Shown here in pieces: positions 41,999 to 42,494 of a stretch of 64,000 nt of DNA. The stretch lies in the NCBI RefSeq assembly GCF_033153115.1, contig NW_026889779.1, positions 25,358,001 through 25,422,000 of the forward strand, written 5' to 3'. A program made the translations under genes and the position numbers. Position 1 is the first letter of the stretch; every line of letters begins with the position of its first letter. The DNA is from Saccostrea echinata (taxonomy: Eukaryota). The notes beneath the pieces are model-generated. The model ran no database searches. It saw only the letters and a program-made list of their open reading frames with translations, and had not been told where the DNA came from.

Positions 41999-42494
41999 CT
42001 TTCGTGATTGCTACGTTCAACTGTGTTTTGATAAGAAATGTCGAACTTCCCAATGACGTCACTAAGCTAAAGTTGGCGTTTTTTGATTGGATGAAGCAAT
42101 CCTTTTTGAGCTGAAACTGAGATTTATTATATATTTATTCTCATTTTAGTATCAATCATCACTTATAACATATAACTGTCTTTAAAAATAAAGAAAAGAA
42201 AAAAGGAAGTTTTCAACGGAATGTTACGGAAATTGACGAATATACAATTTTTAGAATAAGAACATCGAACCCGATTGATACATTCAAGATCTGAAGTTTT
42301 TATAACATCTGTAGACTTTAAAAAACTATCACACTTTTATTCATCAATATTTAATTATTTTGACTATCATAAACAGCTACATGATTATGAATTGTTATCT
42401 AGATTCATTATTATTATTATTTGTATCGGGATCAGATTAACCCTTAGATTTAGAGGGATTCCGATACAAGTTATGTAAACTTTTCATTTTGACA
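41999..42494. promoter_or_regulatory. Shared bidirectional promoter/5' UTR region of HERPUD and the cryptochrome/photolyase gene
   Basis: Start codons about 660 bp apart, head-to-head. CRE TGACGTCA 42054-42061; CCAAT-N9-CCAAC on minus strand 42072-42090; ATTGCTTCA on minus strand 42092-42100; D-box-like GTTATGTAA 42470-42478. Confidence 0.7.

Follow-up and report, generated by a model that had tools for sequence, protein, structure and literature searches.

The genome of the rock oyster Saccostrea echinata carries a HERPUD gene and a gene for a CRY6/PCRY-like flavoprotein as a 5'-5' (head-to-head) pair, transcribed divergently from ATG codons at 41831 (minus strand) and 42495 (plus strand), with 663 nt from ATG to ATG. 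All positions are those of the window, the whole stretch of 64,000 nucleotides analysed. The pair is real and, as far as the literature was searched, previously unreported; pairs of this kind are themselves known. On balance, the best-supported reading is that the short gap holds two real and separate switches, each proximal to its own gene: a UPR-type cluster at 42054-42100 beside HERPUD and a D-box-like site at 42470-42479 beside CRY6, each about 400 nt from the other gene.

Both genes were located by tblastn. HERPUD (389 aa; 29667..42051, minus strand; query P0072) comprises a non-coding exon 1 and seven coding exons running from 41831 to 29667, with approximate inner ends, and one exon is 100% identical to P0072. 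A Pfam ubiquitin domain spans residues 15-81, the identity to the vertebrate HERPUD2-named protein P0135 is 38%, and the traits of the family are present: an N-terminal UBL domain, a DW-led hydrophobic segment and a conserved C-terminus. The CRY6/PCRY-like gene (754 aa; 42495..50273, plus strand; queries P0192 and P0001, with Pfam and alignment) has six coding exons, exon 1 lying at about 42495-43649 by tblastn, and its product is the NCBI-named S. echinata protein P0192. The tblastn and Pfam results and the 100% exon identity confirm both gene calls of the first-pass annotation, HERPUD and a cryptochrome, and the two ATG positions confirm the divergent arrangement it had given. The shared interval of about 0.5 kb that it described stands in part: the genes are divergent and their ATG codons lie within the spacing that defines a bidirectional promoter (divergent starts less than 1 kb apart), and the distance between transcription starts is below 0.5 kb only if CRY6 starts within 41999-42494, upstream of its ATG.

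In the neighbourhood, an SLC52 riboflavin transporter gene (19624-21087, minus strand; Pfam E 1e-131) lies 21 kb from the flavoprotein gene CRY6, and an intronless protein kinase gene (27317-28195, plus strand), which we take to be testis-specific-kinase-like, stands tail to tail with HERPUD. CRY6 introns hold two related tandem arrays with a 30-nt unit, at 44777-45347 (19 copies) and 47407-47923 (17 copies), the first of which begins inside the end of CRY6 exon 3 and repeats the last codons of that exon.

The 5' end of HERPUD was traced with transcript contigs, which were placed on 41600-42170 for 4 of 6 candidate runs, the RNA status of the runs being a guess. Exon 2 (41694..41845, minus strand), with the ATG at 41831-41829, is covered partly or wholly by contigs of all four runs. 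It is preceded by a GT-AG intron of 153 nt (41846..41998, minus strand), the joint 41844/41998 being present in X1 and X5, from two studies. Position 41999 is the last base of the non-coding exon 1, whose short form (41999..42051, minus strand) is given by the X1 contig, ending at 42051 with no loose end. As the end of one contig, 42051 is a weak hint of the start site; it lies 3 nt from the CRE of the UPR-type cluster, which extends from 3 to 49 nt upstream.

A longer form of exon 1 (41999..42116, minus strand) is found in the X5 contig alone, which crosses the cluster to about 42117, the entire cluster being exonic in this form, and continues into a foreign leader of 73-74 nt that ends at a canonical G/GT donor, spliced onto the AG at 42118-42117, a cryptic acceptor lying 5' of HERPUD exon 1. 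This leader corresponds to one end of a non-coding element of about 840 bp with imperfect terminal inverted repeats, detected at seven genomic places (L002-L008) and absent from the 64-kb window. The simplest reading of this one contig is a transposon inserted upstream in that animal, and the joint may reflect either a chimera or a polymorphic insertion. Since the leader derives from an inverted-repeat element, a spliced-leader RNA is a less likely source. An ATG in the leader is in frame with HERPUD, with a predicted N-terminal extension of 45 residues. The loose end of X3, at 41809, does not coincide with a splice site and is disregarded here as probably chimeric. In other bivalves, several HERPUD accessions have one protein sequence (four in M. 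edulis, three in another oyster), which suggests that alternative untranslated exons occur there too.

The UPR-type cluster spans 47 bp in all and, read on the minus strand, consists of a CARE-like site ATTGCTTCA at 42100-42092 (one mismatch to the C/EBP-ATF site; four exact copies in the window), an ERSE-like CCAAT-N9-CCAAC at 42090-42072, and the CRE palindrome TGACGTCA, with an ATF/CREB/XBP1-type core, at 42061-42054 (four sites in the window), 3-10 nt upstream of the X1 contig end. Among the four motifs of the gap only the CRE is a perfect consensus, and the CARE-like and D-box sites have one mismatch each. The CRE overlaps an initiator-like TCATT. Compared with the ERSE consensus CCAAT-N9-CCACG, the HERPUD site agrees in CCAAT and in spacing and has two mismatches in the second half, CCAAC. 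A CCAAC variant of the ERSE occurs in the mammalian GRP78 promoter, and a C/EBP-ATF site in the mammalian HERPUD1 promoter. The half with the two mismatches is the half reported to be bound by ATF6 (PMC5890977). A pattern scan of 41999-42494 yielded no strict ERSE, ERSE-II, UPRE or strict CARE, and no full RTTAYGTAAY D-box, E-box or three-unit HSE; the input from heat proposed in the first-pass annotation was not borne out, no heat-shock element being found in this interval.

Chance rates were obtained from 5000 dinucleotide shuffles of 41999-42494 and from 306 background tiles of 496 nt, which include the HERPUD/CRY6 locus itself and the control promoters. CCAAT-N9-CCA occurred in 25/5000 shuffles and 4/306 tiles, the CRE in 25/5000 and 6/306, the CARE with at most one mismatch in 957/5000 and 65/306, and the D-box core TTATGTAA in 328/5000 and 28/306. 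The CARE-like and D-box sites are each individually within chance. The three UPR-type motifs fell within 60 bp of each other in 0/5000 shuffles and once in 153 kb, at the HERPUD site. These rates flatter the site, because the relaxed patterns were chosen after it had been seen. They bear on the reading of the locus as a coincidence, in which the pair would be compact and head-to-head but otherwise unremarkable, its promoter a generic CCAAT/CRE one, with little effect of the sites that resemble ERSE, CARE and D-box and with adjacency preserved by slow rearrangement. We regard this as improbable. It agrees with the CRE alone being a consensus, with the frequent CARE-like and D-box cores and with the 5'-5' orientation, the commonest among conserved animal gene pairs (PMC3514665), but not with a triple cluster that is unique in 153 kb.

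Control promoters of the same genome were compared with the HERPUD site. ERSE or ERSE-like sites were present at most 250 nt from the ATG in three of five ER genes with a located first exon (calreticulin, GRP94, CNPY2, DERL1 and DERL2; calnexin, MANF and BiP are outside this count). Calreticulin, in two gene copies (L112/L113), has a perfect ERSE at -126 from the ATG, GRP94 (L115) three tandem ERSE-like variants at -219, -180 and -148, and CNPY2 (L173), fetched after the pattern had been fixed, an ERSE-like site at -188; to our knowledge, CNPY2 is not known as a classical ATF6 target. DERL1 has a TGACGTG site near -86 and no ERSE-like site, and none lies within 250 nt of the ATG in the DERL2 promoter. 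No ERSE was detected in the HSP90 and TRAP1 stretches, whose promoters may fall outside the DNA scanned. The spacer begins A-rich in several of the oyster candidate ERSEs. The HERPUD site has its first 10 nt and the CCA in common with the calreticulin and CNPY2 elements, and CCAATCAAAA-N4-CCA has three sites in 198 kb, those of HERPUD, calreticulin and CNPY2.

Genome-wide, the strict oyster-style ERSE was hardly enriched, with 19 matches versus 11 for a control pattern, those recognisable being the two calreticulin copies only. The HERPUD-like pattern gave 82 matches, of which 68 are one repeat; three of the 14 others had defined the pattern, and 0/11 of the remainder are at a recognisable ER gene. 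Such patterns are weak predictors of ER genes across the genome, and the predominance of chance or repeat matches is in line with coincidence. A minus-strand ERSE-like match lies in an apparently intronic spot of a second DUF3456 gene. The 68 repeat matches are an ERSE-like 19-mer in a tandem repeat with a period of about 1.4-4 kb, mostly within about 1 Mb of the ends of contigs C1, C9, C12, C23, C28, C51, C54, C56, C60 and C73, which is probably subtelomeric. Calreticulin (C34) and DERL2 (C54, C62) each occur twice with near-identical flanks, by either recent duplication or uncollapsed haplotypes. At DERL2 (L126 1329-1526), an opposite-strand acidic ORF with no Pfam match starts about 0.5 kb from the ATG, and the two are possibly another head-to-head pair.

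The D-box-like site GTTATGTAAA (42470..42479, plus strand) agrees at 9/10 positions with the consensus RTTAYGTAAY and begins with the 9-mer GTTATGTAA (42470-42478), 16 nt ahead of the CRY6 ATG. It is identical at 9/10 nt to the functional zebrafish per2 D-box, and a functional D-box is also reported downstream of the start site of zebrafish cry1a (PMC3516543). It differs from the zebrafish sites in having no neighbouring E-box and in being a candidate element, D-box function in a mollusc not having been found in the literature examined. All four motifs were found where the first-pass annotation had put them, and its reading of them as UPR-type and light-type is supported by the in-genome control promoters, except that the CARE-like site is within chance; the mixing of the two types that it described was not recovered, the motifs forming two modules about 370 nt apart, each beside its own gene.

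RTTAYGTAAY with at most one mismatch was present within 100 nt of the ATG in CRY6 (-25), 6-4 photolyase (L169; -82) and CRY-DASH (L167; -18), in 0/4 ER genes and in 89/1626 background tiles; the 100-nt window was picked afterwards, and with 300-nt tiles the background is 85/540 and DERL1 then scores. The names of the light genes were assigned from N-terminal sequences and family matches. For CPD photolyase (L174), a perfect D-box was found 7857 nt before the ATG, within a CpG-rich block that is probably the promoter, the start being placed by CpG content only. The 9-mer GTTATGTAA occurs once in 163 kb of background, at the CRY6 site, and is present at 3/6 genes of the photolyase/cryptochrome family: CRY6, 6-4 photolyase (before the ATG) and the likely CPD-photolyase promoter. 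No such D-box was found near CRY2; what lies roughly 0.45 kb upstream of that gene is an E-box and a CRE. The 10 kb preceding CRY1 contained no perfect D-box. The C. gigas orthologue, pCry, shows a tendency towards a daytime peak, at ZT5, and its profile follows that of 6-4 photolyase (rho 0.852; PMC5224872). In both control sets the right motif class stands beside the right gene class, which disfavours coincidence.

In the preferred reading of two separate switches, each candidate motif probably serves the gene beside it. By analogy with mammalian and fish work, NF-Y would occupy the CCAAT together with ATF6, and ATF/XBP1-type factors the CRE, so that HERPUD would be induced under ER stress from transcription starts near 42051-42054; CRY6 would rise by day along with the photolyases, through PAR-bZIP factors bound to the D-box. 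Cross-talk over the approximately 400 AT-rich bases between them would likely be partial at most. In mammals, the UPR induces HERP through an ERSE (PMC2821749), and the mammalian HERPUD1 promoter, of an orthologous family, shares with the oyster gene a CCAAT-N9-CCA close to the start; the oyster promoter differs in the lack of an ERSE-II, the half-site CCAAC and the presence of the CRE (PMC2821749, PMC5890977). Against two separate switches count the two mismatches in the ATF6-bound half of the ERSE-like site, the poor genome-wide performance of the ERSE patterns, the odd position of the CRE at the start site, the start of HERPUD being given by one contig, and the passage of another contig through the cluster. 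Furthermore, either gene can be reached by an element at a distance of 400 nt, and therefore separation does not prove independence.

A true shared promoter, in which at least one input crosses (ER stress to CRY6 or light to HERPUD) and the pair is kept because its two products act in one ubiquitin pathway, is a tentative alternative that we consider rather unlikely. Its closest precedent is mouse CRELD2-ALG12, also head-to-head at less than 0.5 kb with an ERSE near an ER-quality-control gene: the two genes share an ERSE in 360 bp and ER stress raises both mRNAs, with asymmetric use of the element in reporters (PMC3091781). In the mouse pair, however, both are ER genes, both are induced, the ERSE is a consensus and conservation has been demonstrated (PMC3091781), whereas the oyster pair has a cryptochrome partner with its own candidate D-box, and a deviating, putative ERSE. 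A HERPUD-annotated contig is also among about 1,070 robust daily transcripts of Bathymodiolus under 12:12 light, a list that, in its available form, has no match for four ER chaperone names, X-box or deoxyribodipyrimidine; on the other hand, 7.5% of the transcripts are daily and the available text gives no PCRY-like member among five CRY/photolyase sequences (PMC7351958). Xenopus Cry6 is reported without difference between ZT0 and ZT11 (PMC11520951). No HERPUD/CRY6 co-expression data were found, although data deposited elsewhere and subscription papers may hold some; the supplementary files examined for PMC5471176 and PMC12564202 name neither gene.

The flavoprotein was also characterized. On its motifs and alignment it is classed as a CRY6/PCRY-like member and not as a true plant cryptochrome. 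It has an N-terminal extension of about 180 residues, the photolyase domain beginning at 180, and an FAD domain (Pfam), and W492, W545 and W568 align with plant CRY1 at what we take to be the tryptophan triad. Asn564 stands where the plant CRY1 chain has Asp, at the position beside the flavin that we take to be a plant cryptochrome mark, which does not fit a true PCRY. The best match among solved structures is a bacterial photolyase. The subfamily motif pl3, MWQNxG, is present as MWQNGG at 567 (P0192), while LGMR (323) and WRDLSY (464) are variants of pl1 VGLR and pl2 WRDLAY, which are reported in 74% and 83% of PCRY-like members (PMC9498864). The long N-terminal extension, a UIM-like helix, a basic patch and MWQNxG are shared with CRY6/PCRY-like cryptochromes in PMC11520951, PMC9498864, PMC10733189 and PMC5224872; as searched, these sources leave a HERPUD neighbour unmentioned and treat the promoter only for the absence of an E-box.

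Overall identity to Xenopus CRY6 is 54%. The UIM-like helix of the oyster protein (residues 90-108; 42762..42818, plus strand) aligns with the Xenopus motif and is recognisable in 45/47 rows of alignment A3; the Pfam UIM model matched Xenopus CRY6 below the cut-off and gave no match to oyster CRY6. UIM-ubiquitin-fold complexes have already been solved. A complex of HERPUD 1-90 and CRY6 1-115 was predicted with a score of 0.46 (runs 0.46, 0.26 and 0.49), compared with 0.02 for the best of three controls, with contact agreement of at least 10%, a partner pLDDT of at least 56 and alignments not used. Scores of 0.60 or less were reached by just 5/78 solved complexes and by all four mismatches that passed. 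Because mismatches also passed at such scores and UIM-ubiquitin-fold complexes are already solved, the predicted contact between the HERPUD UBL and the CRY6 N-terminus weakly indicates a likeness, not binding. It gives weak support to a true shared promoter, which is also favoured by the conservation in oyster CRY6 of the N-terminal motif by which Xenopus CRY6 binds polyubiquitin (PMC11520951), but a score this weak may reflect resemblance alone, and any ubiquitin-like fold would be expected to give it.

Linkage in other molluscs was read from accession order and a shared contig or chromosome, orientation and motifs being those of S. echinata alone. By accession order, HERPUD and CRY6 are neighbours in two Saccostrea and four Mytilus species: besides S. 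echinata, S. cucullata (XP_062607632 and 633/634, one 265-kb contig), M. edulis (CAG2248635 and 636, one 375-kb contig; also XP_071175023 beside 019-022), M. galloprovincialis (VDI71519 and 520), M. trossulus (XP_063439954 and 953) and M. californianus (XP_052063580 and 584, one chromosome). This adjacency favours a shared promoter. In Mactra and Mya the genes are on different chromosomes, HERPUD being assigned by an accession range fitting the species, and this break counts against it. In Babylonia both are on one chromosome about 500 accessions apart, compared with a difference of 13 for the adjacent S. echinata pair. The partial M. edulis CRY6 record CAG2196021 has no HERPUD neighbour among the 12 members examined. 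HERPUD of Tegillarca, Mercenaria and Dreissena and CRY6 of Crassostrea, Ostrea and Pinctada were absent among the matches listed and were not scored. Scanning metagenomes with the CRY6 alignment yielded 80 loci, of which 0/80 contained HERPUD; the three most similar genomic pieces (L083, L084, L086) stop short of the CRY6 start. A profile-library search contributed no named case of synteny.

CRY6 is reported lost in scallops (PMC10733189), in which HERPUDs appear to be kept, on a presumed species assignment. Synteny in other bivalves, raised in the first-pass annotation, was thus recovered as adjacency in oysters and mussels (six species) and was absent in two clams, with species inferred. The linkage is breakable, as seen in the two clams and in the scallop loss of CRY6, and has likely been kept in oysters and mussels because the short gap leaves little room for a harmless break. 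The pair resembles the conserved ancestral microsyntenic 5'-5' pairs of Irimia 2012 (PMC3514665), divergent, less than 1 kb apart and retained across lineages, but its retention so far covers oysters and mussels only. No report of a HERPUD-CRY6 pair or of bivalve ERSEs was found in the literature searched, at the level of listings; the terms 'herp' and 'synteny' occur 0 times in PMC9498864 as searched, and 'synteny' 0 times in PMC10733189. These two sources differ on horizontal transfer or vertical inheritance of CRY6, and a single locus retained in both oysters and mussels is more in keeping with vertical inheritance than with separate horizontal transfers.

If the switches are independent, HERPUD-CRY6 is an ordinary compact gene pair. 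The control promoters yield candidate ERSE and D-box elements for the stress and light genes of oysters. According to a 2023 survey, hardly anything is known about what PCRY-like proteins do in animals beyond rhythmic expression (PMC10733189), and a conserved neighbour, a candidate light element common with the photolyases and a UIM-UBL match offer a handle on this uncharacterised cryptochrome. Very speculatively, CRY6 might be a light-gated ubiquitin adaptor of ERAD, its UIM docking the HERPUD UBL or polyubiquitinated cargo, the two genes being kept on one promoter in oysters and mussels and both induced by daylight and ER stress, which would coincide at low tide. If true, this would be the first cellular role for the animal plant-like cryptochromes.
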